Shown: positions 4,084 through 56,813 of the stretch, piece by piece
How the letters are laid out: the number at the start of each line of letters is the position of its first letter
Position numbering within the stretch: the stretch's first letter is position 1
NCBI GenBank assembly: GCA_024644345.1
Contig: JAHELE010000001.1
Location: 18,659 to 82,658, forward strand
Reading direction: 5' to 3'
Source of the DNA: Actinomycetes bacterium
GTDB lineage: Bacteria; Actinomycetota; Actinomycetes; JAHEKZ01
DNA: 64,000 nt
Notes under the pieces: generated by a model
Database searches by the model: none
Told to the model about the DNA's origin: nothing
The model's input: the letters and a program-made list of their open reading frames with translations, nothing else
Position numbers and translations under genes: made by a program

Positions 4084-5181
4084 TCAGGAGTACCAGCCGA
4101 CGACCCGGAACGAGACGGCGGCAGCGCTTCCCTTCGCAGTCACCGTGATCTTGCCGTCCGCACCGACCGGCACCACCACCAACGTGCGGTGGGTGCCCTT
4201 CTTGTCGAACGCGAGCAACGGTCGAGGGGTCTTGGCGGACCCGGCCGGAAGCACCGTCAGGTATCCGCTCGCACCGTCGCCCCGGGCAATCGCCTGGACG
4301 ATCACCGACGAGGCAGCTCCGGGAACCTCGGTGTTCTTGCCGCGCACCCGAACCGTGCGCGACTCACCGGCCGACAGCGTGCCGGACGAGCCTGACTCCA
4401 GGGCGGTGAAGCCCTTGATGCTGCGGTATCGACCGGATCGGTCCCCACGCTGCGACCGGAACCAGCCGAGCACGTCAACCTGGACCTGCGCCTTCCCCTT
4501 GCTGAGTCGAAGGGGCAGTCGGCCATCGGCGTCCAGACGAGCCACCGTCGTTCCTGTGCGCCACGCACCCGCGGGCGCTCGCACCGTCAGCCCGAGTGTT
4601 CTCGGCGTGCCCCGTGGTGCGACGCTCAGGGAAGCAGTCTCAGTCGGTTTCACCAGACCGATGCTCACCACCACCGTGCGCGCGTTGTTGGGGACGCCCT
4701 CACGTCCGGCTATCCGGACGTTGCGTGTCTCGCCGGCCTGCAGTCGACCTTTGCTCCATCCGAAGCCGGTCGCGCTGTTGACCAGGCGACGGGCAGCAAC
4801 CGAACGGAGCACTTTGGTCCCCACCCCCGACGATGTGTAGTAGCCGACCAGGTCGACGTCGAGACCCGCCAGTTTCGTGGTGGCACCCAAACAGATCTTG
4901 CCGTTGGACCCAGCTCGGACGGTCGCCAGTCCGGCGTCAGCTCCCCCTGCCGAGTACGTGGCGACGACCTGTTCACGATCGGGTGCACCGCACGGCCACA
5001 CCTTGACGCGTCCGCCGTCGCGGGCGCTCGCGGCGGTGACCCGGACCGCGACCGCTCGCGTTCCTTGCTCTGGCGCACGCTTCGACCCGACGACCGACAC
5101 CGCCACCTGCCCACCGCGGGTGTCAGAAGCCGTCTCTCCTCTGTCGACGATGCGCCTGGCACTGAGCGACCGGAAGTACGA
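4084..5181 (-). repeat. three tandem ~110-aa C-terminal repeat modules inside the SpoIID-like CDS, same family as the amidase repeats
   Basis: Three protein-level units each carry R(R/S)(I/L)V(D/N)...G(V/E)P..A..V...(Y/W)P.G...V(D/V)(L/V)(V/L)G(Y/W)(Y/F). The same module occurs at 6829-7896. Confidence 0.5.
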
Positions 5182-6768
5182 GTACGAAGAGATCGGGACG
5201 AAGGCAGGGGTCGCTGTCGCCGGTCCTCGACCCGAGCGATAGACCGGGGCCACCCGCGCCCGGTACTCCTTCCCGTTTGTCAGCCCCTTGACCCGGACCT
5301 TCCGCGCAGTGGAGCCCACTCGGTAGGTCTGGTCGGTGGACGAGACGGTGATGCGGTACGCCTTCACGCGTCGGTCGGTGTTCGGCGCTCCCCACCGCAC
5401 CAACCCCGAACGGTCACCGCGCTCCACACGGACGTTTCTTGCCGGAGCCGTGATGCCACCGTCGACGTTGGTCACCGTCCACCAGGTGCTCTTCAGGCCC
5501 GCGGCCCAGCGGAAGCTGTCGGCGGACACAGTCACGGTGCTCTTGCTGCCCACGAGGCCGACGGAGAGAACCCGGCCACCCCACGGACCATTGCCGTCGC
5601 GACCCAGGACCTTGAGTTTCTTCACAGTGCCGATCTGCGGCCAGGCGCTCTCGATCCTGGTGGAGCTGACCGAGGTCGACCAGCTGTGCCCCCAGTTCGC
5701 CGCCCCGGTCACGACACCGTCGTACGGGTCCGGCTGAGCCACGAGGTAGGGGCGGCTTCCTGCAACCGAGTACCCACCGTTCGCCGAGCTGAACATGGCG
5801 AACACCGGCTGGCCGGCATGGCGGAGGTACTGATGGGCGGTGGCCCTGACGGCGGCCACCTCCACATTGCTCTCGCTGGATATCGGCCCGTACACCTGGC
5901 AGGACGTGGTGTCACAGATGTCATAGGCGCGGTGCGCCGCTCGCGCGTTCACCTGTGCGAGGAGTGCGTAGCTGCGGGCCGCCACGGCCTGCGCTCTCAG
6001 GGCTGCGTCGGTCCACGAGCTCGGCACCTCCGACGACACGACCGAGCGCAGGTAGTCCTCGAGAAGCAGCGAGTTGACCGCCAGCACCGACGAGGAGCTG
6101 GGCTTGACGTCGAGAAAACCGTGGTAGGTCCGCTTGGCTCCGGTCGACGTCTGGACGCCGATCCGGCTCTTGCCGACCGCGGAGCCGGTTCGCCACCGGA
6201 TCGACCCACTGAGGCCGCCGACCACCTTGACCGCCTTGACTGACGAGACCGCCCATACCGCGAGCCCACCGCTGCCCTTGACGGAGCGGAACGTCGAGAC
6301 CGGCTCGCCACCCGCCTTCGACGGAAGGGAGACGGAGTTGCCACGGTGACTGAGCGACAGACCCGACTTGGCGGGGACGACGACACCGGTGCCCTGCGGA
6401 GTGCTCCGCACGATGCCGGAGAGACCGACCTTGATCTGTCGGTCGGCGCCCACCTCAGCCAGGCGCGTGCCGGGGTAGTAGAACTTCACGATCTGGCGGT
6501 AGCTCTTGCCGAGTCGACCCATCCCCTCGGCACCGAACTGCGACATCCCGATGCCGTGTCCGTAGCCCAGCCCGGACAGCTGGAACACGCCGCTGGAGGG
6601 TCGTGCGTAGGCCTCGCCGGACGACCCGGCTCGGGCCGGTGCGGAGATGAGAGAGAGCAGACCCCCCACAAGCCCGGCAACCGCTGCAGCCGCCAGCACC
6701 CTTCGGAGGTGTCGCTGGCTGAGTCGGTCGGTGGGTCCGTGATTCACCACACCCGTCACACCAGTCAC
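4084..6768 (-). CDS. secreted SpoIID/LytB-domain protein with FN3 domain and three C-terminal ~110-aa repeats
   Basis: Signal peptide (RRVLAAAAVAGLVGGLLSLISAPARA). SpoIID hallmarks are present: GYGHGIGMSQFGA...IVKFYYPG, ALRAQAVAARSYAL, FAMFSSANGGYS, DSFRWAAG. Then an FN3-like segment (RNVRVERGDRSGLVRWGAPNTDRRVKAYRITVSS), then three repeats ending ...VDLVGYY / ...VDVLGWF / ...FRVVGWYS. Confidence 0.75.
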   Translation of the reverse strand: MTGVTGVVNHGPTDRLSQRHLRRVLAAAAVAGLVGGLLSLISAPARAGSSGEAYARPSSGVFQLSGLGYGHGIGMSQFGAEGMGRLGKSYRQIVKFYYPGTRLAEVGADRQIKVGLSGIVRSTPQGTGVVVPAKSGLSLSHRGNSVSLPSKAGGEPVSTFRSVKGSGGLAVWAVSSVKAVKVVGGLSGSIRWRTGSAVGKSRIGVQTSTGAKRTYHGFLDVKPSSSSVLAVNSLLLEDYLRSVVSSEVPSSWTDAALRAQAVAARSYALLAQVNARAAHRAYDICDTTSCQVYGPISSESNVEVAAVRATAHQYLRHAGQPVFAMFSSANGGYSVAGSRPYLVAQPDPYDGVVTGAANWGHSWSTSVSSTRIESAWPQIGTVKKLKVLGRDGNGPWGGRVLSVGLVGSKSTVTVSADSFRWAAGLKSTWWTVTNVDGGITAPARNVRVERGDRSGLVRWGAPNTDRRVKAYRITVSSTDQTYRVGSTARKVRVKGLTNGKEYRARVAPVYRSGRGPATATPAFVPISSYSYFRSLSARRIVDRGETASDTRGGQVAVSVVGSKRAPEQGTRAVAVRVTAASARDGGRVKVWPCGAPDREQVVATYSAGGADAGLATVRAGSNGKICLGATTKLAGLDVDLVGYYTSSGVGTKVLRSVAARRLVNSATGFGWSKGRLQAGETRNVRIAGREGVPNNARTVVVSIGLVKPTETASLSVAPRGTPRTLGLTVRAPAGAWRTGTTVARLDADGRLPLRLSKGKAQVQVDVLGWFRSQRGDRSGRYRSIKGFTALESGSSGTLSAGESRTVRVRGKNTEVPGAASSVIVQAIARGDGASGYLTVLPAGSAKTPRPLLAFDKKGTHRTLVVVPVGADGKITVTAKGSAAAVSFRVVGWYS

Positions 6769-6828: not shown

Positions 6829-7896
6829 TTACCGAATCCAGCCCACCACGACGACGTTGGGACGAACCGTCGCGTCGCGCGCGCGCAGACGGAGGTCGCC
6901 GCCTTTGCCGATCCGCACGACGGCAACAGTCTCCCGGGACGTGCGGGACGGGACGACCAGATCTGCCGACCCAGGCTCAGACGCCCCCCGCGGCCACATC
7001 ATGAGTCGACTCTGCTTCTTGCCTGCGCTCCCAGTGAGCTGGACGAGAACGGCGCGGGCATCGCTCGGGACACCGGCGCGTCCGCGGACGCTGACAGTCC
7101 TGGCGTCGCCTTTGCCGAGGGTCGCCCCCTTCTTGAGCAACGCGCGCGGAGCGACCGGGTGAACCGAGCCCGGTCCACCGGCCGTCACGTACCCGGCGAC
7201 GTCGAACGCCACCGAGCCGGCTCGATCCGCCGCCACCCGGATGCCGCCGCCGGCACCTAGCGGCACAACCACCTGAGAGACGCTGCCGCTTCCGCGGGGA
7301 CGTCGCCAGCTCGGGACCGCCGGCTTCTCGGCTCCACCCGGCCATGCCCATACCGCACCCACTGACGACTTCGCCGTGCGTCGAATCGCGAGCACAACGG
7401 CCTTGGCGTCGTCAGGCACGCCGGCACGCCCCGCCACATCGACCCCCACTGGTGTCGGGCCGACCGACAGCGGGCTGGCCACCCCCAACGCAGTGCGGCG
7501 CACCGGTGTGAGCTCACCCCCGGCACCATCGGTGGTGATGTAGCCGGCTACCGAGGCCTTCAGCGCAACCGCCCCTGCGGAGTTCCGGAAGCGAACCCCG
7601 CCACCGGGGCCCACCCGGACGACCACAAAGGCACGGGCCGTGCCGCTCTGCTTCAGCGAGACGGCTTGCGCGCCGGCGCCGGTGACCCGGTCGGGGCTGA
7701 CGGTGATCCGCGTCCCCGCGCTGGCACACACCGCTTCCACCGACAACGCGACCGCGGTGACGCCGCTCTGCGGCACACCCGCTCGACCCAGCACCTGGAC
7801 GTCCAGACGTCGGCCTGGCCCCAGCAGGAGACGACCCTTGATGCCCTTGCCGGACGCCGTCGACAGCAGGGTGCGGGCACGCTGGGGCACGTAGGT
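6829..7896 (-). repeat. three tandem ~110-aa C-terminal repeat modules inside the amidase CDS
   Basis: Units contain ...GRAGVP(Q/D/S)(S/D)A(K/R)AV(A/V)L...(W/V)(P/R)..G.....V(A/V)(G/V)(Y/W)(I/V). Confidence 0.5.
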
Positions 7897-9468
7897 CCCG
7901 GCCGGTGCCTTGTTCAGAGACGCCGTGGTCGAGGTCGACGACCGCCCGCCGACTCCCACGAGGACCGATCGCTCGAACGGCCAGGCACTGCTTCCGTTCC
8001 CCGAGCTGGTCAACGTCATGCGATACCGACCGGGCGAGGCGAGTTGGCCTTTCTCGTCGCGTCCGCGCCACACCGCCCGGATTGGATCACCGGGTGCCGC
8101 CGTGCCGGTGAGGCGCCGAACCAGGTCGCCGCTGCAGAAGTCGCGCACCGTCAGCGCCCAGTTCTGCTGTTGAGTGACCCGGGCCTCGGCGGCAATCGCG
8201 ACATCAGACCCCGCCGGCACACTGCGGGTCGACAGGGTCGGCTCGATCAGACTTGATCCCATGTAGCCCTTGGCGAGCCGTCGGATCTTGGGCAGTCGCT
8301 GGTAGAGGTTGTCCCCTGGGCAGGCAGTCAGCTGCGAGTCCCGATGCCCCGAGATCACCTTGAACCTGACCTTGCGGCCCGGGGAGTACTTCGACGAGCC
8401 CACCTCCGCCGTCAGCACCTTCTTGCCGAACGGGTCACGGTGATAGCGCGACAACCGGTACGCGAGAACCTTGGCGATTCCGCGCACCATGGCGTCCGAT
8501 GCGGGAGCCGTCTGGAAGTTCCCCATCGCCACCACTGCGAGTGTGTCGGTGTTGAACCCACCCGATGCCGCTGACCGCACCGGCTTGGTGATGCTGCCCG
8601 CTCGACCCTCGTAGATGGTCCCGTACTTGTCGACCAGGAAGTTGTAGCCCATGTCGGCGTACTTCAGCGTGTTCACGTAGTAGCTGTAGAGCCCGCGCAC
8701 GACGGCTGGACTCTCGCTACGCGAGTAGTTGTTGCTGCCAGCGGTGTGGTGGACGAAGGCCACCTTGAAGGTGTCGCTGTTCTCCAGATTCTTGTCACGC
8801 AGTGACTCGTCGGCGCCCCACTCGGCCCGTGTGACGATGGGCGGTCGCTCGGTGGCGGCGGTAGCTGTTGAGCCACTCCATCCGCCGGTCACCGCCGCGT
8901 CGGCGTCCGAGGTACCCGGCTCGATCAGGTCGACCCGGACGTCGGATGGTTGGGCGTCGCCCACCGCGTCGACACGGACCTGCACAGCATCGGAGTCACC
9001 AGCCCAGTAGGGAACAGTGCCGAAGCGCCCGTTGGGTGAGGGCTCAGTGCCACTGTCAACGCTCGTTGGCACCTCGAACCAGTCGGTCCACGTACCGTCG
9101 GTGCGCGTCCGGGCAGTGACCAGGACCGTTCCGTCGCCGCTCGGGGCGGCGCCCTTCCACGTGACACCCAGCATCCGGAAGGCGTCGGTCTCCAGGGGCT
9201 CCGACACCACGACGGGGGGTCGAGCAGCGGCCTTGGCTGCCGACGACCGGCTGGTGATCTTGCGCCAAATCGGCTCCAACGTGTCGGGGACTGGCGCAGC
9301 GGCCAGTGCCGCGCGATCAACTCCGACTAGCGGCACGGACTGCACCGCGGCGGCGACCGGGTGCGGGGCCGCGAGCGACACGGTGAATGCCGGTGCCACG
9401 ACAACGGTGGGGATGACAAGAACGGCGGCGAACAACGCACCAGACGGTGCCGGACGGGGGAAACGCAC
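6829..9468 (-). CDS. N-acetylmuramoyl-L-alanine amidase (PGRP/Amidase_2 domain) with three C-terminal ~110-aa repeats
   Basis: Amidase_2/PGRP zinc-site motifs are present (TRAEWGADESLR...FVHHTAGSNNY...VISGHRDSQLTACPGDNLY). Signal/TM segment (ALFAAVLVIPTVVVAPAFTVSLAA). The GTG start at 9468 is preceded by GGAGAGG. The ORF-track start at 9528 is an alternative. C-terminal repeats end ...AGYITTDG / ...AGYVTAGG / ...VVVGWIR. Confidence 0.8.
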   Translation of the reverse strand: MRFPRPAPSGALFAAVLVIPTVVVAPAFTVSLAAPHPVAAAVQSVPLVGVDRAALAAAPVPDTLEPIWRKITSRSSAAKAAARPPVVVSEPLETDAFRMLGVTWKGAAPSGDGTVLVTARTRTDGTWTDWFEVPTSVDSGTEPSPNGRFGTVPYWAGDSDAVQVRVDAVGDAQPSDVRVDLIEPGTSDADAAVTGGWSGSTATAATERPPIVTRAEWGADESLRDKNLENSDTFKVAFVHHTAGSNNYSRSESPAVVRGLYSYYVNTLKYADMGYNFLVDKYGTIYEGRAGSITKPVRSAASGGFNTDTLAVVAMGNFQTAPASDAMVRGIAKVLAYRLSRYHRDPFGKKVLTAEVGSSKYSPGRKVRFKVISGHRDSQLTACPGDNLYQRLPKIRRLAKGYMGSSLIEPTLSTRSVPAGSDVAIAAEARVTQQQNWALTVRDFCSGDLVRRLTGTAAPGDPIRAVWRGRDEKGQLASPGRYRMTLTSSGNGSSAWPFERSVLVGVGGRSSTSTTASLNKAPAGTYVPQRARTLLSTASGKGIKGRLLLGPGRRLDVQVLGRAGVPQSGVTAVALSVEAVCASAGTRITVSPDRVTGAGAQAVSLKQSGTARAFVVVRVGPGGGVRFRNSAGAVALKASVAGYITTDGAGGELTPVRRTALGVASPLSVGPTPVGVDVAGRAGVPDDAKAVVLAIRRTAKSSVGAVWAWPGGAEKPAVPSWRRPRGSGSVSQVVVPLGAGGGIRVAADRAGSVAFDVAGYVTAGGPGSVHPVAPRALLKKGATLGKGDARTVSVRGRAGVPSDARAVLVQLTGSAGKKQSRLMMWPRGASEPGSADLVVPSRTSRETVAVVRIGKGGDLRLRARDATVRPNVVVVGWIR

Positions 9469-9575
9469 AGTAAGCCTCTCCGGGGGAAGTCGGTGGTCCG
9501 ATGGGAACAAGGCGTTCCCTGGTGCCATCGGCCGGGTGCAGACCCGGCTGGAGACGAGTCCCTACCCTAGCTCGC

Positions 9576-10343
9576 GTGACCTCCACCACTGAGCACCTGA
9601 CGCGCGCGTTGTCGACCGACCCGTCCGGTCCGCGGCTGACGTTCTACGACGACCTCACCGGTGAGCGCGTCGAGCTGTCGACCACCACCCTGGCCAACTG
9701 GGTGGCCAAGACCACCAACCTGCTCGTTCTGGAGTGCGGAGTGGGGCCGGGATCGCACGTGGCGCTCCACCTGCCCCGCCATTGGACCACCGCGATCTGG
9801 GCGCTGGCCGGTGACGCCGTAGGCGCCCACGTGAGCCTCGTCGCCAACGAGGTGAGCGATGCGAGCCCAGCGATCGACGCGGTGGGGTCGGTCGACGTCG
9901 CCGTGATCGGTCCGGACTCTGTGCTCGAACCGCCAGCCGCTGACGAGATCTTTGCCGTGTCGTTGGCCCCCCTGGGGGCCCCGTTCACGACGCCATTGCC
10001 CACGTTCGTGCGCGACTTCACCGTGGAGGTCCGCACCATGCCCGACCAGCTCAGCGGTCCGGTCGGTCCCCCCGGAACCGTCGGTGAGTTGGCCGAGCAG
10101 CGCGCCCGGGCGATGGGCCTTGGCCCATCGGACCGGGTGGCCGCGTTGGGCGACCTGGGCGGGACGACGGCACTGATCGACGAGTGGCTGGCCCCGTTGG
10201 CAGTCGGGGCAAGCGTGGTGTGGGTTCGGAACCCCGACCCCGTGACATGCGTCTCACGGTGGGGGTCCGAACGGGTGACGGCGGTGGCCAGAACCCGGCC
10301 GGGCGGTGTTTCTGTCCCTGACTCGATTCGGATCCTGCCCTAG
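9576..10343 (+). CDS. actinobacterial conserved hypothetical protein, TIGR03089-like (acyl-activating-enzyme-like fold)
   Basis: Sequence HVALHLPRHWTTAIWALAGDAVGAHV. It sits beside the LCP/CpsA gene, as Rv3268 does beside Rv3267. The start is uncertain (GTG at 9576, or the ORF-track start at 9501). Confidence 0.55.
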   Translation: MTSTTEHLTRALSTDPSGPRLTFYDDLTGERVELSTTTLANWVAKTTNLLVLECGVGPGSHVALHLPRHWTTAIWALAGDAVGAHVSLVANEVSDASPAIDAVGSVDVAVIGPDSVLEPPAADEIFAVSLAPLGAPFTTPLPTFVRDFTVEVRTMPDQLSGPVGPPGTVGELAEQRARAMGLGPSDRVAALGDLGGTTALIDEWLAPLAVGASVVWVRNPDPVTCVSRWGSERVTAVARTRPGGVSVPDSIRILP

Positions 10344-10408
10344 GGAGTCCGTATCCTTCAGGGCCGGCGCTTTCCCACCGCGCGCCACCAGCTGACCACG
10401 AGGAACCC

Positions 10409-11848
10409 ATGACGCACACCGAACGGCCGGAGTCGGCTGCCTCGGGGCACCCCCGGATGCGCCGGACGCTCAGGTGGCTCGCCGTGATCGTGGTGCTGCT
10501 GCTGGTTGCCGGCGGGGCCACCGGCTTCTACCTCTACCAGCGTTTTGAGGGGAACATCGGCCAGGTCGACGTCTTCACGACCGACATCCTGGGCACCGAC
10601 CGACCGACCAAGGCAGAGCCGGTCGACAACCAGGCGGAACCCCTGAACATCCTGGTCATGGGCTCGGACACCAGAGCCGGGCAGGGCAGGGGCTACGGAC
10701 CTGAGGCAGAGATCACCGGCGCGCGGTCCGACACCACGCTGCTCGTCCACCTCCCGGCCGACCGCCAAAGCGCTCTGGTCGTGAGCATCCCTCGCGACAC
10801 CGTGCTCGACGTTCCGTCGTGCAAGACGCAGAACGGACCATCCACCCCGTACACGGACCGCTTCAACTCTGCGTTCTCCACCGGCGGGCCAGGCTGCACG
10901 ATCAAGACCGTGGAGCAGAACACCGGCGTCTTCATCGACCACTTCGTCATCGTGGACTTCTCCGGGTTCAACGACATCGTCGACGCCCTCGGTGGAGTCG
11001 ATGTGTGCCTTCCCGAGGCAGTTGTCGAGCCCAAGAGCGGGCTGGACCTTCCCGCCGGCACCAGCACCGTGACGGGCGACCAGGCGTTGGCGTTCGTGCG
11101 GGTGCGCGCGATCGGAACCGGAAGTGACATCGACCGGATCGATCGGCAGCAGGCCTTTCTGTCGTCCTTGATCAACAAGGCCAAGAGCTCCGGCACACTC
11201 CTCAACCCCGTCAAACTCGTGCGTTTTCTAGAGGCGGCGACCAAGTCGCTGACGACCGACCCCGCGCTGGCCAACCTCAACGAGATGCGGCGGATCGCCC
11301 AAGACGTCCGAGGGATCCCGCCCAAGGACATCACCTTCGTCACCACTCCGTGGCTGGTGAACCCCGACGACCCCAACACCGTTGTCTGGAACGAGAAGAA
11401 GACCGACGCCCTCTGGTCGGCCATCAGCAACGACGAGACCTATCCCCCCGCTCCCCCTGAGCCGACCACCATCGACGGCAAGCCACTGACCGTGCTCCCG
11501 AGCGCGGTTCCGCTACGGGTGCTGAACGGCAGTGGCGTGAGCGGGGCGGCCACCACAGCGGCTACCGAGCTCAAGGCGAAGGGCTACTCGACGATCGGGG
11601 TTGGCGATGCCGAAAGCCAGAACTTCATCTCGACGGTGATCCGCTACGACGAGGCCGGCGCTGACGCCGCCCGCACCGTGGCGGCATCCATCCCCGGGGC
11701 CGCTCGGGTGCTTCGGCCGGGGCTGGGGACGACGGTCGAGGTCGTGGTGGGTGATGACTGGCCAGGCGCCACACGGGTGGTCGTCAAGAAGCCCCCGAGC
11801 GTTACCGTCCGGCAAGCGACCGACAACATCTGCAAGATTCCCGGCTAA
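10409..11848 (+). CDS. LytR-CpsA-Psr (LCP) family cell-wall polymer ligase with C-terminal LytR_C domain
   Basis: N-terminal TM segment (LAVIVVLLLVAGGATGFYLY). LCP core motifs (LNILVMGSDTRAG...RSDTTLLVHL...SIPRDT...GFNDIVDALGGVDV). GAGGA RBS before the ATG. Confidence 0.85.
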   Translation: MTHTERPESAASGHPRMRRTLRWLAVIVVLLLVAGGATGFYLYQRFEGNIGQVDVFTTDILGTDRPTKAEPVDNQAEPLNILVMGSDTRAGQGRGYGPEAEITGARSDTTLLVHLPADRQSALVVSIPRDTVLDVPSCKTQNGPSTPYTDRFNSAFSTGGPGCTIKTVEQNTGVFIDHFVIVDFSGFNDIVDALGGVDVCLPEAVVEPKSGLDLPAGTSTVTGDQALAFVRVRAIGTGSDIDRIDRQQAFLSSLINKAKSSGTLLNPVKLVRFLEAATKSLTTDPALANLNEMRRIAQDVRGIPPKDITFVTTPWLVNPDDPNTVVWNEKKTDALWSAISNDETYPPAPPEPTTIDGKPLTVLPSAVPLRVLNGSGVSGAATTAATELKAKGYSTIGVGDAESQNFISTVIRYDEAGADAARTVAASIPGAARVLRPGLGTTVEVVVGDDWPGATRVVVKKPPSVTVRQATDNICKIPG

Positions 11849-13653
11849 CGGTCGGCGAAACGTCCCGAGCTCTCGGCTGCGTAGATCACCCCGAGAACGA
11901 CAGAACCGATCCCCAGCCCCCAGGCGAGCTCTCCGACTGCGGCGAGCAACACCACCAGAACAACTCGCCCGAAGGCACCCAGGCCGACAATTCCCAGCCA
12001 GGTCGGTGGGGAGGCGCCAAGGACGCGTTGTCTCGTCGCGATGTCGAGACGGTGAAAGGCCAGCACCGCGATCCACGCAATCGTGATCGCAAGGGCTGCC
12101 GGCTCGACAACTGCGGCCGCAGCCAGCACCACCGTCGACTCCACGACCCAGGTGAGCGGGGGAACCCAGGCCGCCACACGCGAGCTCAGAGCCCGACGCA
12201 GTGCCGACAGATGCGGATCCTGTTGGGAGACCAGGCGGGCCAGCGGACCAGGGTCGGCCAGCTCGAAGAGCTGCCGCCGAGCAGCGGCAAGCGGCCGCGG
12301 GGCACCCACCAGCACGAGGCAGACCACAGCACTCAGGCCCGCCAGCACCGCCAGCACCGCCAACAGCGACGTCGGCGGGAGCAGGATCAGGGCGACGACC
12401 GTGAGGACGGCTCCGTCACCACGAGAGATGCTGAACGGGAGCCACTCGGGAACGGGCCGCCCCTCTGGCGGTGGGGTGGCAGGAAGCAGCGGCTCGTCGA
12501 GGCGGTCCAGCGGCAACCGGATGGGTGTCGGGCTGCCTCCCCATCCACGCGCGGTGCGGCTCGCTGCCGCCGCAAGATGGGCCAGTGTCAGGAGGACCAG
12601 CACTGTCGATGCGAGCCCCCAGCGCGGCGATCCGGACTGAGCGGTACCTAGCCCGAGACCGATCACCACGGCAGCCTCGCGGATCCGGTCCGTGGTGACG
12701 TCGAACCAGGCGCCGAAAGCGGTGACGGTGCGACGTGCCCTGGCCAAGATCCCGTCGACCCGGTCAAGCAAGACGGAGATCAGCAGAAAGAACGCCGCCG
12801 TGATGGCACCCCCTCGGGTGCCCGTCGAGATCAGCAGCCCGGCCAGGAGTGCTGCTGCCACGCTCACGACGGTGGTTGCGTGAGCGCCCACACCGGCGCG
12901 CCAGGCCCACAGGGACACGACCTCTGCAGCCTGGCGGCCGCCGATTCGGTCCACGAGCCCTTGAGGCAAGCCAGCTGCAGCGTCGATCCGCACCCTGGTC
13001 TCGTGCTCGGGATCGAGCGGCATGGTTGCCGTTCCCCATGGCAGTCCCGGAGTGTCGACCGCGTGGACGGTGACCCCCGCCCGGACCGCTGCCACGACTG
13101 TCAATGGCCAGACCGGCCCCGACCAGTGCTGCTCGTCTGCCACATCTGCCATCACCCGCACTGCGCTGGCGACCGAGTCGGCATCGGCTGCGTCAACCCG
13201 CAGCAGGCCGGACCCGTTGTGCGTGGACTGACCGACGGTGTGGACCCCTGAACCGGCGCCCACCACAACGCCAGCAACCACCCGCAGAGGGGCGTCGGTG
13301 ACCGGTGGACGCGACCCCGGGTCGGCAGCATCGACCGGCACGGGGTCGACCAGCACGGCGGTGCGAGTGGCCGCTTCGACCTCCTCCACGGTGACGACCG
13401 AGCCGAGTGCCTCGGCCGCCAGCAGAAGGACCGGAGCCGGCACCCCTTCCATCGCATCAGCCACCGCTCGTACCGTGTCGGCCGTTCCGCCACGGGTGAC
13501 CACGTGGTGAGCCGCGCGCACCTCCGTGAGGGAGGGCGCAACCAGGTAGACGTCGTGGCCGCGTCCCTCGAGCTCGTCGACCCACTGCTGTGCCCGCCGT
13601 TGAGCCGCGGCGTCACCGGCGTCAGCGTCAGGTGCGACGAGCACCACTGTCAC
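11845..13653 (-). CDS. fusion protein: ~280-aa N-terminal cytoplasmic domain of unknown function plus a polytopic CDP-alcohol phosphatidyltransferase domain
   Basis: CDP-alcohol phosphotransferase signature D-G-x2-A-R...G...D...D (LLDRVDGILARARRTVTAFGAWFDVTTDRIREA). Multiple TM helices. Its start overlaps the wzt stop (ATGA) and its stop overlaps the LCP stop. Confidence 0.7.
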   Translation of the reverse strand: MTVVLVAPDADAGDAAAQRRAQQWVDELEGRGHDVYLVAPSLTEVRAAHHVVTRGGTADTVRAVADAMEGVPAPVLLLAAEALGSVVTVEEVEAATRTAVLVDPVPVDAADPGSRPPVTDAPLRVVAGVVVGAGSGVHTVGQSTHNGSGLLRVDAADADSVASAVRVMADVADEQHWSGPVWPLTVVAAVRAGVTVHAVDTPGLPWGTATMPLDPEHETRVRIDAAAGLPQGLVDRIGGRQAAEVVSLWAWRAGVGAHATTVVSVAAALLAGLLISTGTRGGAITAAFFLLISVLLDRVDGILARARRTVTAFGAWFDVTTDRIREAAVVIGLGLGTAQSGSPRWGLASTVLVLLTLAHLAAAASRTARGWGGSPTPIRLPLDRLDEPLLPATPPPEGRPVPEWLPFSISRGDGAVLTVVALILLPPTSLLAVLAVLAGLSAVVCLVLVGAPRPLAAARRQLFELADPGPLARLVSQQDPHLSALRRALSSRVAAWVPPLTWVVESTVVLAAAAVVEPAALAITIAWIAVLAFHRLDIATRQRVLGASPPTWLGIVGLGAFGRVVLVVLLAAVGELAWGLGIGSVVLGVIYAAESSGRFADR

Positions 13654-14624
13654 GTTCGGGCCTCGGGGGTGCCTGAGGTCTCAGGCAGGTCTTCACCCTC
13701 TTCGTCCAGATCATCACTGACCGGGAGCAACCCGCCCGCAGCGAGGCGCTCAGCTTCTCGACGACGCTGGCGCCGCTCGCGACGCGCCTTCTTCCGCTCG
13801 CCCTTCCACCCTGGGTGCCCCTCCATCTCCCGGTCGACGTTGTACTGCGCAAGCACCTCACCGATGTCGCCGTCAGCCTGGACCCGGCCTCGGCGCAGAT
13901 AGATCCCGCGGGTGCACAACCGCTGCAGCTGCCGCTCGCTGTGCGAGACCAGGAAGAGGGTCTTGCCTCCGGCCAGCATGGTGTCGAGCCGCTCATACGC
14001 CTTGCGCTTGAACGACCGGTCTCCGACCGAGAGCGTCTCGTCGATGATCACGGTGGGCTCGTTGAGGGAGGTGATCAGTGAGAAGGCCACTCTCGTTCTC
14101 ATACCGCTGGAGAGGTGGCGGAAGGGAGTATCGACGAAGTCGCCGACCTCGGCGAAGTTGATGATGTCGTCGAACCGCTCCTCGACCTCATCACGCAGCA
14201 TGCCGTGCAGGCCACCGACGATGTGCAGGTTGTCGCGCACGGTCAGGTCTGCCTTGAAGCCGCCGGAGATGTTGACCAGAGGCGCCACTCCGCCGACCAG
14301 CCGCACCCAGCCCTCGTCGGGGATCAGGGTGCCGGCGACCAGCTTGAGCAGGGTGCTCTTGCCCTGTCCGTTCGCCCCGATGATCCCGACCGACTCGCCC
14401 TGCGTGATCTGGAACGACACGTTCCGGAGGGCCCAGAACTCGCTCTTGGCCTTGCCTTTCTCCTCTTTGAACAGATCTGAGAGGCGCCGGTTGCGGATGC
14501 GGTTGCGCCGGAACTTGATTCCGAGCTTGTGCGCCTCGATGGCAACGGGGGCATCAACTGTGTCAGCCGAAGCCGTCGGCGGCGCTGACGAACCGGATGT
14601 GTCCACCGCCGTCGGAGCGTCCAT
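13650..14624 (-). CDS. ABC transporter ATP-binding protein, Wzt/TagH-like polysaccharide/teichoic-acid exporter ATPase
   Basis: Walker A (GIIGANGQGKSTLLKLVAG), signature motif (LSSGMRTRVAF) and Walker B (IIDETLSVGD). The ATG at 14624 overlaps the permease stop (TGATG). Charged C-terminal tail. Confidence 0.85.
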   Translation of the reverse strand: MDAPTAVDTSGSSAPPTASADTVDAPVAIEAHKLGIKFRRNRIRNRRLSDLFKEEKGKAKSEFWALRNVSFQITQGESVGIIGANGQGKSTLLKLVAGTLIPDEGWVRLVGGVAPLVNISGGFKADLTVRDNLHIVGGLHGMLRDEVEERFDDIINFAEVGDFVDTPFRHLSSGMRTRVAFSLITSLNEPTVIIDETLSVGDRSFKRKAYERLDTMLAGGKTLFLVSHSERQLQRLCTRGIYLRRGRVQADGDIGEVLAQYNVDREMEGHPGWKGERKKARRERRQRRREAERLAAGGLLPVSDDLDEEGEDLPETSGTPEART

Positions 14625-15541
14625 CAGAGCTCCTTCAGGACACGGGGTTCGAGCCGGCGGAAGAGCCACCAGCCGATCACAAAGATCAGCGCCGAGAGCA
14701 GCGCCGAGAGCGCCAGCAGCGCCGCGACGTCGGAGGTGTTGTCGGGGAAGAGCACCGCGTGGTACGTGTTCAAGATGCCCACGAGCGGGTTGAGCGCGTA
14801 GACCCAGAGCAGCGAGTCCGGCAGGTCGTTCCGGTCCAGCACCTCCGTCAGCAGACCGAGCCCATAGATGACCGGTGACAGGTAGCGGTAGAGCGTGGTG
14901 AAGACCTTCACGACTCGGTGCACGTCGGGGTAGAGCATGCAGAGCGGCGCCAGGGTCAGGGCCAGCCCGACGTTGAAGAGGAACTGGACGGCAAACGCGA
15001 GCGGGAGGATGACCAACCACCACGTCACGCCGACGGGACCGCTCTTGGGGGGGAAGATCATGAAGAACAGCACGAAGACCACGGTGATCGGCAGCGTGAA
15101 GAGGAACTCGATGAACCGCGACGAGACCGACCGCAGCACCCAGATCTCGCGCGGCAGGCTGGACGAGGTCACCAGCTTGGCGTCGTTACCGAGCAGCCGA
15201 CCGGAGTCTCCGAGCACGTGCGCCGTCCACTGGAAGGGCAGGATGCCGGTGAGGAGCCAGAGGATGTACGGCTGCTCATTGGTGGCACCACGCGAGACGA
15301 TCACGCCGAAGACGAACCAGTAGACGAGGGTCAGCAGCAACGGGTCGAGCAAGGTCCAGGCGAAGCCGAGCACCGAGTCGCTGTACCTGACCTTGAGGTC
15401 ACGGACGATGAGGATCCGGAGGATCCGCCGGTTGATCCAGATCGCGCGAGTGCGCGCCATGGCCGACGGGCGATGGGCCGGCGTGGCGGACGGGTCTGCC
15501 GGCTGGGGTGACGCTGCCGGCGCTGCAGAAGACGCACTCAT
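14624..15541 (-). CDS. ABC-2 type transporter permease, Wzm/TagG-like
   Basis: Six TM helices, ABC-2 permease signature (RDLKVRYSDSVLGFAWTLLDPLL). Translationally coupled to the ATPase gene. Confidence 0.8.
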   Translation of the reverse strand: MSASSAAPAASPQPADPSATPAHRPSAMARTRAIWINRRILRILIVRDLKVRYSDSVLGFAWTLLDPLLLTLVYWFVFGVIVSRGATNEQPYILWLLTGILPFQWTAHVLGDSGRLLGNDAKLVTSSSLPREIWVLRSVSSRFIEFLFTLPITVVFVLFFMIFPPKSGPVGVTWWLVILPLAFAVQFLFNVGLALTLAPLCMLYPDVHRVVKVFTTLYRYLSPVIYGLGLLTEVLDRNDLPDSLLWVYALNPLVGILNTYHAVLFPDNTSDVAALLALSALLSALIFVIGWWLFRRLEPRVLKEL

Positions 15542-15611
15542 GTGAGTGCCCCAGCCTAACGGGCGCCGCGTCGAACCCCCCGGAGGCCACCCCGCACCGT
15601 CCCCGGCAGCT

Positions 15612-15635
15612 CTGACTTCGGCGCGCCGAAGTCAG
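15612..15635. promoter_or_regulatory. 24-bp perfect palindrome in the divergent wzm / LCP2 intergenic region (candidate operator)
   Basis: CTGACTTCGGCG|CGCCGAAGTCAG, 12-bp arms with no spacer, within the 200-bp divergent region 15542-15742. Confidence 0.35.
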
Positions 15636-15742
15636 GTCAGTGTGTGGCTCCCCTACCCTCAAGTCATCGTGCCGCGGGAACCGCAACGGCTCTCACCACG
15701 TCTTACCCGCGACCCCGACCGAGCCCAGGAGACCCACAACAG

Positions 15743-17170
15743 ATGAGCGCCGCCCTTCCCCCGGAGCTCTCACCCCGCGCAGCTGGCGGTCCGCCGTCCC
15801 CGGCCAAGCGTCGGTGGGTGACGCGGGTCACGACCGCACTCGCCGCAGTGGTGTTCCTCACGAGCACCGGTGGCTGGGTGATGGCGACGTACTACGACGT
15901 CAAGCTCGCCCGAATTCCCGGCCTGTCGGGCCTCAGCGGGGACAGCACTGGCCCCCTCACCATCTTGATCGTCGGATCGGACAGCCGCGAGGGCCTGAGC
16001 CTGGCCGAGGCCAGGAAGCTGGGGACGGGCACGGCGGCAAACAGCTCGACGGGGCAGCGGTCCGACACGATGATGCTGTTGCACATCGCCGGCGACCGGA
16101 AGAGCGCCACCGTCGTCAGCCTCCCGCGTGACTCCTACGTCACGATCCCGGCCCACACCGACAGCGCCGGCAAGAAGCAGCCTGCCAGCAAGAACAAGCT
16201 CAATGCCGCGTACGCCCTCGGCGGCGCACCGTTGCTCATCGACACCGTCAAGGCCGAGACCGGACTCACCATCGACCACTACGTCGAGGTCGGATTCGCT
16301 GGGGTCGTGAACATGGTCGATGCGCTCGGCGGGGTCGACGTCTGCGTGCCAAACGCCGTCGACGACTGGCGCAGTGGCTTGAAACTGCCGGCAGGCAAGT
16401 CGCATGTCGACGGGCTGATGGGGCTCTCGTACGTGCGAGCCCGCTACATCGACCCCACCGCAGACATCGGACGTATGCAGCGCCAGCAGCGCTTCCTCGG
16501 GTCGATGTTCCAAGAGGCGACGACCGCACAGGTGCTGCTCAACCCGGTCAAGCTCAATGCGTTCCTGGCTGCGGCGCTCGACTCGGTGACTGTCGACGAC
16601 GGCATGTCACGCGACATGCTGCTCGAGCTCGCCGGCGAGATCCAAGGCCTGACCCCGAAGGACATCCGGTTCCTCACGGTCCCCTTGTCCGACGTGAACC
16701 TGGCCACACCTGTCGGCAGCGCAGTGGAGTGGGACCAGAAGAAGGCCGCACTCGTCTTCGGCTCGATCGAGAGCGACCAACCCCTGATCAAGGAGAAGAA
16801 GGGGCCGACCGTCCAGGTGGCGCCGGCCGACATCGACGTCCAGGTGCTCAACGGCAGCGAGGTCGACGGGCTGGCCACCACCGCAAGTACTCACTTGGAC
16901 AGGGCGGGGTACACGATCGCGGCTGCCCCCGGCAACGACAAGCGCGGCGATGTGACCTCCACGATCATTAGGTACGACCCGCAGTGGAACACTTCGGCAA
17001 AGACCCTGCAGGCAGCGTTCCCCGACGCCACCCTGGAGGAGGTCTCCGGTCTTGGGTCCACCTTCCAGGTGGTCGTGGGTACCGACTACGTCAAACCATT
17101 GAAGGTTCGCGTGGCCCGCAAGGACAACAAGCTCGGATCGAGTACCGCTGCCGACAGCGTGTGCGGCTGA
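15743..17170 (+). CDS. LytR-CpsA-Psr (LCP) family protein, second paralogue, with LytR_C domain
   Basis: Motifs LTILIVGSDSREG...RSDTMMLLHI...SLPRDS...GFAGVVNMVDALGGVDV. The ATG at 15743 is in frame inside the longer track ORF that starts at 15644. Confidence 0.85.
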   Translation: MSAALPPELSPRAAGGPPSPAKRRWVTRVTTALAAVVFLTSTGGWVMATYYDVKLARIPGLSGLSGDSTGPLTILIVGSDSREGLSLAEARKLGTGTAANSSTGQRSDTMMLLHIAGDRKSATVVSLPRDSYVTIPAHTDSAGKKQPASKNKLNAAYALGGAPLLIDTVKAETGLTIDHYVEVGFAGVVNMVDALGGVDVCVPNAVDDWRSGLKLPAGKSHVDGLMGLSYVRARYIDPTADIGRMQRQQRFLGSMFQEATTAQVLLNPVKLNAFLAAALDSVTVDDGMSRDMLLELAGEIQGLTPKDIRFLTVPLSDVNLATPVGSAVEWDQKKAALVFGSIESDQPLIKEKKGPTVQVAPADIDVQVLNGSEVDGLATTASTHLDRAGYTIAAAPGNDKRGDVTSTIIRYDPQWNTSAKTLQAAFPDATLEEVSGLGSTFQVVVGTDYVKPLKVRVARKDNKLGSSTAADSVCG

Positions 17171-17185
17171 CCGCTCGGACCGGAG

Positions 17186-17683
17186 TCAGCGTTCGCCGGC
17201 CCGCAGGAGGTCGATCTCGGCGCGACGCGCCAGGCGGTGCTGCCGACGGATCTCAGCCTCGGCCAGACGCCGGCGCTCCTCGTCATTTTCGGCCACCACC
17301 GCCGGAACCGATCTGGGGCGCCCGTCGTCATCAACCGCTACGAACACCAGGTAGGCCGACGCCACATGGACCGGCGGGTCGAGTTCGTTCCACCGCTCTG
17401 ACGTGACCCGGACGCCGACCTCCATCGACGTTCGGCCCGCCCAGTTGACCTGTGCGTGGGCATGGATCAGGTCACCGACCCGCACCGGGTGCAGAAAGAC
17501 CATCTCGTCCATGGACACCGTCACCGCTGGGCCACGACTGTGCCGGCCGGCGGCCGCACCGGCGACCGAGTCCACCATCCGCATGACCACGCCGCCGTGG
17601 ACCGTGCCGAGCAGGTTGACGTCGACCGACGTCATGATCTGGGTCAGGGTGGTCCGTGCCGCGCTCGCTGGGACCGGTTCCAT
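17186..17683 (-). CDS. acyl-CoA thioesterase (hotdog fold, YciA-like)
   Basis: GTVHGGVVMRMVDSVAGAAA...MDEMVFLHPVRVGDLIHAHAQV. The internal start MEPVPASA is assumed, so the 5' end is uncertain. Confidence 0.65.
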   Translation of the reverse strand: MEPVPASAARTTLTQIMTSVDVNLLGTVHGGVVMRMVDSVAGAAAGRHSRGPAVTVSMDEMVFLHPVRVGDLIHAHAQVNWAGRTSMEVGVRVTSERWNELDPPVHVASAYLVFVAVDDDGRPRSVPAVVAENDEERRRLAEAEIRRQHRLARRAEIDLLRAGER

Positions 17684-17737
17684 TCGGCCATCCAAGCACG
17701 GCTCGCTAGCCTGACCCTGACAAACACGGGGGTGCCG

Positions 17738-18475
17738 ATGCACAACCGCGCGGCCGCCCGGTTCATCCCCCCTGAACACGGCGCCTGGGCTCTTCTCCTC
17801 GTCCCCTACCTCGTGGGCACCCTGGCTGGACAGCCTTCGTGGTGGTCACTGGTTCTCCTCGTCGCCTGGTTGGCGGCATACCTCACGACGTACTTCACCC
17901 TCCGGTGGTGGAAGACACGCCGCCTACGCCATCGCGGTAGTCGGTTCCGCGTCCCGGCGCTCATGTACGCCTCGGTGCTCACGGTCACCGGGGCCGTCCT
18001 CGTGGCGTGGCGACCCTGGCTGCTGGGCGCTGCCCTCGCTTTCGTTCCCTTCGAAGCAGTGGCTGCTACTCAGTCGGTACGTGGCAAGGAGCGGTCGTGG
18101 GTGGCCGGCATAGCCTCGGCTACCGCCGCCAGCCTCATGTCACCACTTGCCTACTGGGTCGCCTCGGGTAACCGCGTTGGACTGGCTTCGGAACTGTTCA
18201 TCGTGACGTGGCTGGCCCTCGTCGGTTCGGTCCTGCACGTCAAGTCCACCATCCGCGAGCGCGACAACGTCGAAGCGCGTCGTGCGTCGATTGCATTCCA
18301 CATCGTGGCCCTGGTCATCGGCGTTCTGATCAACCCGCTCTTGTCGGTGTCGTTCGGCTTCCTGCTCGCCCGGGCGACCGTCGTGCCGCAGCGGGGATGG
18401 CGTCCGGCGCAGATCGGAACTGTCGAGATCATCGGTTCGGCACTGGTAGTCGTCGTGACAACGTTCGCACTTTGA
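17738..18475 (+). CDS. polytopic integral membrane protein of unknown function
   Basis: Six to seven predicted TM helices. ATG at 17738 (MHNRAAARFIPPEHGAWALLLVPYL...). The upstream part of the track ORF overlaps the thioesterase. Confidence 0.5.
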   Translation: MHNRAAARFIPPEHGAWALLLVPYLVGTLAGQPSWWSLVLLVAWLAAYLTTYFTLRWWKTRRLRHRGSRFRVPALMYASVLTVTGAVLVAWRPWLLGAALAFVPFEAVAATQSVRGKERSWVAGIASATAASLMSPLAYWVASGNRVGLASELFIVTWLALVGSVLHVKSTIRERDNVEARRASIAFHIVALVIGVLINPLLSVSFGFLLARATVVPQRGWRPAQIGTVEIIGSALVVVVTTFAL

Positions 18476-30113: not shown

Positions 30114-30220
30114 CAATTCCCTCCTCCCCGGTTCTATCGGCCCCCAACGCTCCCTCCCTTGAGGGCTCAAGGGGCTCGGACTGGGGAAGTGAGGTGCCGG
30201 TCAGGAGGCGGTTGGACGCC

Positions 30221-31867: not shown

Positions 31868-31925
31868 GCCTCCCCCCTTGAGATCGGAGTGAAGGGGCGG
31901 GGTCTTGAGCCTGCACCTGGTCCGC

Positions 31926-56739: not shown

Positions 56740-56813
56740 AGGCCGGTGCATCCTCGTCACAGATGCCGGTCGATCGAATGAGAGTTGTCAGTGGTGGATG
56801 GGACTGTGGGCGC

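Follow-up and report, generated by a model that had tools for sequence, protein, structure and literature searches.

A predicted CDP-alcohol phosphotransferase with two apparently degenerate domains is encoded in a glycopolymer-exporter operon of an uncultured actinomycete lineage

Gene content and conservation of the locus

We analyzed a 64-kb, high-GC (~68%) stretch of DNA from the uncultured actinomycete lineage JAHEKZ01, referred to here as the window, with a focus on a 602-aa protein, termed X, which is encoded at 11845-13653 on the minus strand and belongs by sequence to the CDP-alcohol phosphotransferases (CDP-APs). Open reading frames (ORFs) were assigned to families by Pfam gathering scores and NCBIfam equivalog cutoffs. 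X lies in a block of five ORFs (LCP_A, X, Wzt, Wzm and LCP_B), all of which are present at the positions and in the families that an earlier sequence-only reading had given them. LCP_A (10409-11848, plus strand, 479 aa; PF03816 LytR_cpsA_psr, E 9e-48) and its paralogue LCP_B (15743-17170, plus strand, 475 aa from ATG 15743) are LytR-CpsA-Psr (LCP) glycopolymer ligases with a LytR_C domain; both pass TIGR00350 (161 and 147 bits vs a cutoff of 62) and match PF13399 (66 and 55 bits), and their orthologues at the equivalent positions are 76-91% and 78-92% identical, respectively. The other two genes encode an ABC-2 permease of the Wzm/TagG type (14624-15541, minus strand, 305 aa) and an ABC exporter ATPase of the Wzt/TagH type with a charged C-terminal tail (13650-14624, minus strand, 324 aa). 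Wzm passes Pfam ABC2_membrane (PF01061, 28.6 bits vs a cutoff of 26.9) and matches NCBIfam galactan_ABC_perm. Wzt, an ABC_tran protein whose orthologues are 85-97% identical, best matches the NCBIfam models PRK13545 (189 bits), galactan_ABC_ATP (162 bits) and TagH (152 bits), all under the equivalog cutoffs. Judged from these scores, Wzm and Wzt constitute a TagGH/Wzm-Wzt-type ABC-2 glycopolymer exporter, an assignment made at the family level only.

The wzm, wzt and X genes form an overlap-coupled three-gene operon. The stop codon of wzm and the ATG start of wzt overlap as TGATG, in agreement with the translational coupling proposed before, and an AAGGAG ribosome-binding site serves the wzt gene. 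The overlap between wzt and X is GTGA, not the ATGA previously read, and X starts with GTG; homologues of X keep the M/V-TVVLVA N-terminus which results from this start. The LCP_A gene is convergent with the X gene, and the stop codons of the two overlap. In addition, a gene for a TIGR03089-family protein lies beside LCP_A (9501-10343, plus strand; 203 bits vs a cutoff of 85), as had been noticed from the sequence, and is syntenic in four related loci (L001, L002, L004 and L005).

At least 28 full-length homologues of X with 48-82% identity were found, nearly all of them metagenomic. A scan of GTDB with one genome per species (185,579 species genomes), using peptide patterns that are specific to the window clade and do not measure the wider family, returned five loci, all in metagenome-assembled genomes (MAGs) of Actinomycetes bacterium or Candidatus Nanopelagicales. 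These five GTDB MAG loci and two further metagenome contigs share the order LCP_B-Wzm-Wzt-X-LCP_A-TIGR03089-amidase-SpoIID, with protein identities of 64-97%. The arrangement is not due to chance. More distant relatives were reached differently: word-indexed protein searches found few of them, while a search from an alignment of the distant clade reached cultured genera, and a metagenome scan gave at least 436 relatives, for which 80 loci were retrieved.

Domain architecture of X

The AlphaFold2 (AF2) model of X (pLDDT 81, pTM 0.78) consists of an N-terminal alpha/beta region (residues 1 to ~228), a helical membrane domain broken by a disordered Pro-rich loop (residues 372-398) and further C-terminal helices. 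Together with Pfam and NCBIfam models, Foldseek comparisons and the 28 full-length homologues, the model divides X into three parts: a predicted cytoplasmic alpha/beta domain with an IPCT-like nucleotidyltransferase (NT) fold (residues 1-228; 12970-13653, minus strand), a CDP-AP domain with six predicted transmembrane helices (TMs) (residues 229-452; 12298-12969, minus strand) and a DUF5941 domain (residues 453-602; 11848-12297, minus strand). The sequence-only reading had described a fusion of two parts, the N-terminal domain and the phosphotransferase; both are present, and DUF5941 is a third that it did not include.

The central domain matches PF01066 (CDP-OH_P_transf) at residues 261-373 with 42.6 bits vs a cutoff of 22 (E 1e-10), and the membrane part matches AF2299 (5e-14) and PgsA1 (1e-12) among PDB sequences. 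Further hhalign analysis aligned residues 189-445 of X with TM1-6 of an IPCT-DIPPS (P0042), by which the Pro-rich segment (residues 372-400) corresponds to an insertion in the TM4-TM5 loop. All eight residues of the catalytic signature are present, namely D297, D300, G301, A304, R305, G314, D318 and D322 (12688-12765, minus strand), in the spacing D-x2-D-G-x2-A-R-x8-G-x3-D-x3-D. In PgsA1 of Mycobacterium tuberculosis, the four Asp residues bind two metal ions, the fourth (D4) is the presumed catalytic base, and an important part in acceptor binding falls to the basic residue after D4 (PMC6506517). The basic residue which follows D4 in X, R323, is invariant. Of the 80 metagenome loci, 78 carry the full Asp motif, as do 14 of the 15 loci gathered before the metagenome scan and all eight related loci of the window clade. 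By sequence model, motif and predicted six-TM fold, X is thus assigned to the CDP-APs. It reached none of the equivalog cutoffs examined within this superfamily, with 20.4 bits for pgsA (cutoff 109), 22.5 for pssA (107), 42.6 for PIPSynth (170), 53.7 for archaetidylinositol-phosphate synthase (180) and 29 for the bifunctional IPCT-DIPPS model NF041135 (580), the last match being collinear.

A Foldseek search of the PDB with the X model returned as first match 4MND, the IPCT-DIPPS of Archaeoglobus fulgidus (E 2e-8 over 483 columns), followed by AF2299 and phosphatidylinositol-phosphate (PIP) synthases; the E values for 4MND, 4Q7C, 4O6M and 5D92 range from 2e-8 to 6e-4. The N-terminal domain moreover matches the isolated IPCT cytidylyltransferases 2XME/2XMH (TMt ~0.55). 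These matches bear out the suggestion, made from the sequence, that the N-terminal domain might have an IPCT-like fold. In alignments, none of the family members examined has the GxGxR(L) CTP loop expected in this fold: in the window clade, the site after strand 1 (TVVLVAP) varies and contains gaps, and the wider family has only remnants there, such as AIVLAAGA and AVILPAGGG. The domain carries a family-specific AGSxxH motif, which we take to replace the region of the substrate-phosphate lysine of IPCT. No family member has a Pfam nucleotidyltransferase match at E < 0.1, and a phmmer search with residues 1-250 against 1.84 billion representatives yielded nine clusters and no nucleotidyltransferase. 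When the N-terminal profile was aligned with single NT sequences by hhalign, the scores equaled those of reversed-sequence controls and were not used as evidence, so that the NT assignment rests on Foldseek and the visible motif remnants. Therefore, we read the N-terminal domain, which had been called novel, as a putative decayed pseudo-cytidylyltransferase in which the fold has been kept and the chemistry has not. Since the GxGxR loop is missing, this domain is probably not the maker of the CDP-alcohol. Separate NT genes adjoin relatives of X in L013, in L092 and, of the 63 metagenome loci with informative context, in 8.

The C-terminal DUF5941 domain (PF19365) was detected at residues 484-595 with 32.5 bits vs a cutoff of 27, covering model positions 73-188 of 208. 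In a 76-sequence family alignment, hhalign aligned the DUF5941 columns with the CDP-AP columns collinearly over 163 columns with a score of 37.7 (P 6e-5), whereas the controls (two reversed and 23 column-shuffled) scored 8.6-14.4. The two copies share a repeat motif, WLDxxxDRxKEY in one and WLVPxxLRxxEY in the other. In Micromonospora, the repeat reads GGWLDTMADRAKEY in copy 1 and LDWLVPAALRAGEY in copy 2, with D3 and D4 replaced in copy 2. A separate AF2 model of DUF5941 had a pLDDT of 87; its Foldseek matches were non-significant, and 15 of the 24 listed were CDP-APs. These data show that DUF5941 is a degenerate second CDP-AP copy, which in the window clade is reduced to the equivalents of TM3-TM6.

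DUF5941 is not always fused. A split form was seen in at least 15 of the 80 loci, in relatives from soil metagenomes (L092 at 7182-9592, and L056, L063, L066, L070, L076, L077, L081, L083-L087, L089 and L090): the CDP-AP ORF ends ~190 residues past the motif and DUF5941 is a separate ORF of ~208 aa in a different frame, lying directly after the CDP-AP gene and in L092 overlapping its stop codon. Occurrence as a fusion in some genomes and as adjacent genes in others suggests that the CDP-AP and DUF5941 parts interact. Dimers of CDP-APs form via TM3/TM4 (PMC6506517). By analogy with these dimers, the simplest reading suggests an asymmetric pair of a catalytic protomer and a pseudo-protomer. Our literature search found no paper mentioning DUF5941, and CDP-APs in actinobacterial wall clusters were mentioned there at the annotation level only.

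Genomic contexts of the wider DUF5941 family

Distant homologues in Micromonospora, Actinoplanes, Jidongwangia and Glycomyces, which NCBI names 'DUF5941 domain-containing protein', are 23-33% identical to X. The gene order is Wzm-Wzt-X-[GT2+Glyphos_transf] in Micromonospora and X-[GT2+Glyphos_transf]-ABC ATPase in Actinoplanes; in Glycomyces, four GT2 genes are followed by Wzt-X, with UDP-glucose dehydrogenases nearby. In a MAG, genes for an NT, Wzm, Wzt, X, a small CDP-AP and a GT4 stand together, near a GT2+TagF-like gene and a UDP-GlcNAc 2-epimerase gene. A member that lacks the catalytic motif lies in the order LCP-GT2-X-GT4. Adjacency to a Wzm/Wzt-type exporter and/or a glycopolymer gene was seen in the window, L010, L011, L012, L013, L014 and metagenome loci. 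Among the 18 metagenome loci that span 14 kb or more, 14 have a gene for an ABC exporter no more than 8 kb away from the X homologue. LCP genes are also among the neighbors of X relatives.

A further type of cluster, recurrent in L086, L089, L067 and others, is exemplified by L092, where genes for a GT4, X, DUF5941, an NT, an Fe-ADH_2 protein, a small CDP-AP, a GT2, Wzm and Wzt follow one another (cluster part 9055-14829). The best NCBIfam match by far of the Fe-ADH_2 protein is the NAD(P)-dependent glycerol-1-phosphate dehydrogenase (229 bits), which is its probable identity; glycerol-1-phosphate has archaeal-type stereochemistry. In Streptomyces, a syntenic block has been reported that comprises tagG, tagH, araM and genes for a sugar-phosphate nucleotidyltransferase, a CDP-alcohol phosphatidyltransferase and a GT2 (PMC13118837). 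Taken together, the family is linked throughout to ABC-2 exporters, TagF-like polymerases, LCP ligases and CDP-alcohol supply genes. Correspondingly, the association of this phosphotransferase family with teichoic-acid-type assembly, which had been proposed from the window, holds among its relatives, which adjoin Wzm/Wzt, GT2+Glyphos_transf, LCP and CDP-alcohol supply genes.

Proposed function of X and alternative explanations

The reading which we favor, with moderate confidence, is that X is a dedicated CDP-polyol-dependent phosphotransferase with a lipid-linked wall polymer as its substrate and a coupling to the ABC exporter. It probably carries out a step, not described so far, in the assembly of wall polymers that contain phosphate. 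We infer its catalytic activity, donor, acceptor, pseudo-dimer and coupling to export as follows. The CDP-alcohol would be made in trans, as the N-terminal domain is without a CTP loop; this domain would probably serve for ligand binding or docking. The single catalytic six-TM domain, with its di-metal Asp motif facing the cytoplasm, would move a polyol- or alcohol-phosphate onto a hydroxyl of a polyprenyl-linked polymer intermediate with release of CMP, and the product could be a primer, a decoration or a cap. By analogy with relatives, the transferred group would most likely be glycerol phosphate from CDP-glycerol. DUF5941 most likely would stand in for the second protomer of a CDP-AP homodimer, giving an intramolecular pseudo-dimer; the retention of TM3-6 equivalents in the window clade and the use of TM3/TM4 by CDP-AP dimers support this. 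The product would be handed to Wzm/Wzt, the putative exporter of a lipid-linked cell-wall glycopolymer, and the exported polymer would be joined to peptidoglycan by the flanking LCP ligases. This reading is supported by the overlap-coupled operon, the gene order kept in eight related loci, the full catalytic motif and the teichoic-acid-type contexts of relatives.

Several observations weigh against it. X is the fastest-evolving gene of the syntenic set, with 64-83% identity vs 85-97% for Wzt, and the GC3 of its gene (0.77) is the lowest of the block, vs 0.83 and 0.92 for the operon partners. D4 is replaced by A, T or S in 5 of the 28 close orthologues (P0009, P0015, P0019, P0022 and P0028), and two distant members, P0039 and P0056 (L015 6440-8395), have lost the whole Asp motif, yet their genes are still coupled to a GT2 gene in a cluster with LCP and GT4. 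Members of the family may thus do more than catalysis, or catalysis may not be their essential role. Moreover, none of the ORFs scanned over the 64 kb of the window is a glycosyltransferase, TagF-like, TagO, TagD or polyol-phosphate or glycerol-1-phosphate dehydrogenase gene. The same ORFs include no TagO/TagA, no TagB/TagF-type polymerase and no CDP-polyol synthase, so that the locus is not a canonical wall teichoic acid cluster, and such genes may lie elsewhere in the genome. The earlier proposal that a phosphate-containing glycopolymer is attached here draws support from the family context; no genes for synthesis of a polymer or CDP-alcohol were found in the window, and phosphate in the polymer of this locus is a prediction. 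A conserved actinobacterial LCP hot-spot has been described, also around cglA in Streptomyces (PMC11481543). LCP_A and LCP_B belong to this general hot-spot. The two paralogues do flank the operon as had been read, and since they lie in a conserved hot-spot, this position is weak evidence for a dedicated module.

The decay of the motif leads to the alternative that X serves Wzm/Wzt mainly in a non-catalytic way, as an adaptor or regulator, that is, a scaffold recruiting polymerases or a sensor of CDP-alcohol or the lipid-linked substrate. Two of the three domains of X are already degenerate, the loss of D4 and the motif-less but translationally coupled P0039 and P0056 described above would be expected of such a protein, and the tight stop/start coupling to wzt suggests stoichiometric co-production. 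Nevertheless, the eight signature residues are intact in the X of the window, in all eight clade loci and in 78 of the 80 metagenome loci, which points to purifying selection on the active site, and R323 is invariant; we regard the adaptor role as possible but unlikely. Another possibility, to which we attach a still smaller weight, is that X makes the lipid anchor or primer, with CDP-diacylglycerol as donor or diacylglycerol or a glycolipid as acceptor, for a lipoteichoic acid (LTA)-like polymer or lipoglycan exported by Wzm/Wzt. Among the best sequence relatives of X are PIP and archaetidylinositol-phosphate synthases, whose CDP-donor is a lipid, and the glycerol-1-phosphate dehydrogenase of related clusters would yield LTA-type stereochemistry; in addition, LTA-like polymers are made by actinobacteria, in which no obvious LtaS route is known (PMC3196553). 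Against this stand the scores of X, far under every phospholipid-synthase cutoff, and the LCP genes at its flanks and LCP/TagF-like genes near relatives, which point to peptidoglycan-attached, polyprenyl-linked polymers. Its closest structural matches, IPCT-DIPPS and AF2299, also use soluble substrates.

The structural match to 4MND over 483 columns, together with the collinear NCBIfam IPCT/DIPPS match, could also mean that X makes di-myo-inositol phosphate (DIP) or a related compatible solute and that the linkage to an exporter is incidental. This is highly improbable given the 29 bits vs a cutoff of 580, the missing cytidylyltransferase loop, the additional DUF5941 domain and the operon linkage to Wzm/Wzt and TagF-like genes, which is kept across orders. 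Some sources label homologues as 'phosphatidylglycerophosphate synthase' and X falls in PF01066, and it had been recognized from the start that a housekeeping phospholipid synthase (PgsA, PssA or PIP synthase) would overturn the interpretation. This identity is scarcely credible: X scores 20-54 bits vs cutoffs of 109-180 and has 602 aa with two additional domains, its context is a glycopolymer cluster, and its range is narrow and patchy, with the clade at five loci among the 185,579 GTDB species genomes. Both the DIP synthase and the housekeeping PgsA/PIPS were rejected on NCBIfam scores, architecture and context.

Comparison with known systems

Like X, the A. fulgidus IPCT-DIPPS (4MND) and AF2299 (4O6M) have an N-terminal NT-type domain followed by a six-TM CDP-AP with DxxDGxxAR...G...D...D. 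X differs from them in that its NT-like domain has neither GxGxR nor a Pfam NT match, in its predicted degenerate CDP-AP copy (DUF5941) and long Pro-rich TM4-TM5 loop, and in the location of its gene in an ABC-exporter operon between LCP genes rather than in a compatible-solute context. In Micromonospora, Actinoplanes and Glycomyces, the uncharacterized DUF5941 proteins have the same three parts as X and likewise an intact CDP-AP motif, and their genes lie directly after wzm-wzt and/or before a GT2+TagF-like gene. They carry a full-length, ~6-TM DUF5941, whereas the window clade retains positions 73-188 of 208; the motif reads DCVDGQLAR in the former and DRVDGILAR in the latter, and the window clade has no adjacent TagF-like gene. 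Therefore, X is best placed by sequence in a divergent, truncated clade of the uncharacterized DUF5941 family.

Wall teichoic acid assembly in Bacillus and Staphylococcus (TagB/TagF/TarL, TagGH and TagTUV) uses the same ABC-2 export and LCP attachment, and the chemistry proposed for X, transfer of an alcohol-phosphate from a CDP-alcohol with CMP release, is the same. In contrast, TagB and TagF are peripheral GT-B-like proteins (PF04464), while X is an integral CDP-AP (PF01066), and no homologue of TagO, TagA, TagB, TagD or TagF is encoded in the window. The gene set of the Streptomyces tagG/tagH/araM block matches that of the metagenome locus L092; the block is known from orphan-cluster synteny only, with no function shown (PMC13118837), and the window locus is without the araM-like, NT, small CDP-AP and GT2 genes. 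Wzt and Wzm of the window also match the models for the mycobacterial galactan exporter Wzm-Wzt, at scores below the cutoffs (162 vs 400 and 35 vs 380); in mycobacteria, wzm-wzt lie elsewhere, beside glfT1, and are not known to be accompanied by a DUF5941 protein. The exporter and the ligases are ordinary, and what is new is X, a predicted pseudo-/active/pseudo-enzyme, and its conserved and hitherto undescribed coupling to Wzm/Wzt.

The biosynthesis of wall glycopolymers in actinobacteria is poorly understood outside mycobacteria, and an X-type enzyme would be an obvious missing component. The family is widespread, as judged from the at least 436 relatives in one metagenome scan and from the cultured hosts Micromonospora, Actinoplanes and Glycomyces. 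The decayed CDP-AP copy, fused or split, and the dead cytidylyltransferase predict an asymmetric pair of catalytic and pseudo-protomers, a rare arrangement for CDP-APs, and both findings make the family experimentally tractable. For the organism of the window, the locus predicts a peptidoglycan-linked polymer bearing an alcohol-phosphate group, and the glycerol-1-phosphate dehydrogenase of sister clusters suggests where an unusual stereochemistry of glycerol phosphate in bacterial wall polymers could come from. A bolder and doubtful extension is that DUF5941 proteins are a third, membrane-embedded class of teichoic acid synthases in Actinobacteria beside the TagF-like and LtaS-type ones. Using CDP-glycerol, they would prime, polymerize or cap a polymer of glycerol phosphate (possibly sn-glycerol-1-phosphate), which would pass from them straight to Wzm/Wzt. 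If true, this would explain the LTA- or wall teichoic acid-like polymers of LtaS-less actinobacteria and the purpose of a bacterial glycerol-1-phosphate dehydrogenase in such clusters.

Intergenic elements and neighboring genes

The maximal LCP_B ORF starts at GTG 15644, which was rejected in favor of ATG 15743. An AGGAGA Shine-Dalgarno sequence lies 11 nt upstream of this ATG, and because it is conserved together with ATGAGCGCC at the LCP_B start in two relatives (L004 and L009), translation is placed at 15743, as in the sequence-only reading. The divergent wzm/LCP_B promoter region contains a perfect 24-bp palindrome, CTGACTTCGGCGCGCCGAAGTCAG (15612-15635). Its core CGGCGCGCCG does not vary among six related loci, and the changes in its arms are symmetric. 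A conserved element on the plus strand, CTCCCCTACCCTC (15648-15660), forms an invariant alignment block; within it, TACCCT fits a TANNNT -10 hexamer, and we infer that it is the -10 hexamer of LCP_B. The palindrome is likely an operator, a candidacy suggested by its centre lying ~41 nt upstream of the transcription start that this hexamer would set. An Rfam scan of the whole window at the gathering threshold gave no match, so the palindrome is not a known riboswitch.

Genes for a ManC-like NTP transferase, a SpoIID-domain protein and an amidase accompany fbiA/fbiB upstream of the block; its downstream side has a thioesterase gene, a YwiC-like gene, purE/purK, nadCBA and genes for an NrtR-like regulator and a GtrA-like protein. 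The locus is part of a conserved actinobacterial fbiAB–purEK wall region, which, from its fbiAB, manC-like, LCP, TIGR03089 and purEK genes, we take to be syntenic with the mycobacterial Rv3261-Rv3276c, Lcp1 (CpsA) region. The mycobacterial character attributed to this region is thus supported by the fbiA/fbiB, ManC-like and purE/purK context, but neither wbbL nor rmlD, which had been named with it, occurs in the 64-kb window.

The SpoIID/LytB+fn3 protein (894 aa; 4084-6768, minus strand) adjoins the Amidase_2 protein (899 aa; 6829-9528, minus strand). These two giant, wall-hydrolase-like proteins have in common a C-terminal region of ~260-370 aa with 27-29% identity and no Pfam assignment, and the amidase of a relative (L009) bears an Rv3811_N domain. 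Downstream of the block, the YwiC-like ORF, taken at its maximal length, shares ~320 nt with the thioesterase gene (17186-17779, minus strand; 17456-18475, plus strand); homologue alignments and the Pfam match of the YwiC-like protein start near residue 90-104, so its true start is probably near 17720. At 28461-33590 (minus strand), three tandem GAF-GGDEF paralogues of the diguanylate-cyclase type (569, 548 and 554 aa) stand beside genes for a biotin ligase and a bPH_2-domain protein. A DUF222 protein is encoded at 56616-58070 (plus strand) among genes of core metabolism (acyl-CoA synthetase-like and sdhCDAB). The DUF222 family is usually tied to HNH endonucleases, and this gene may be a mobile-element remnant.

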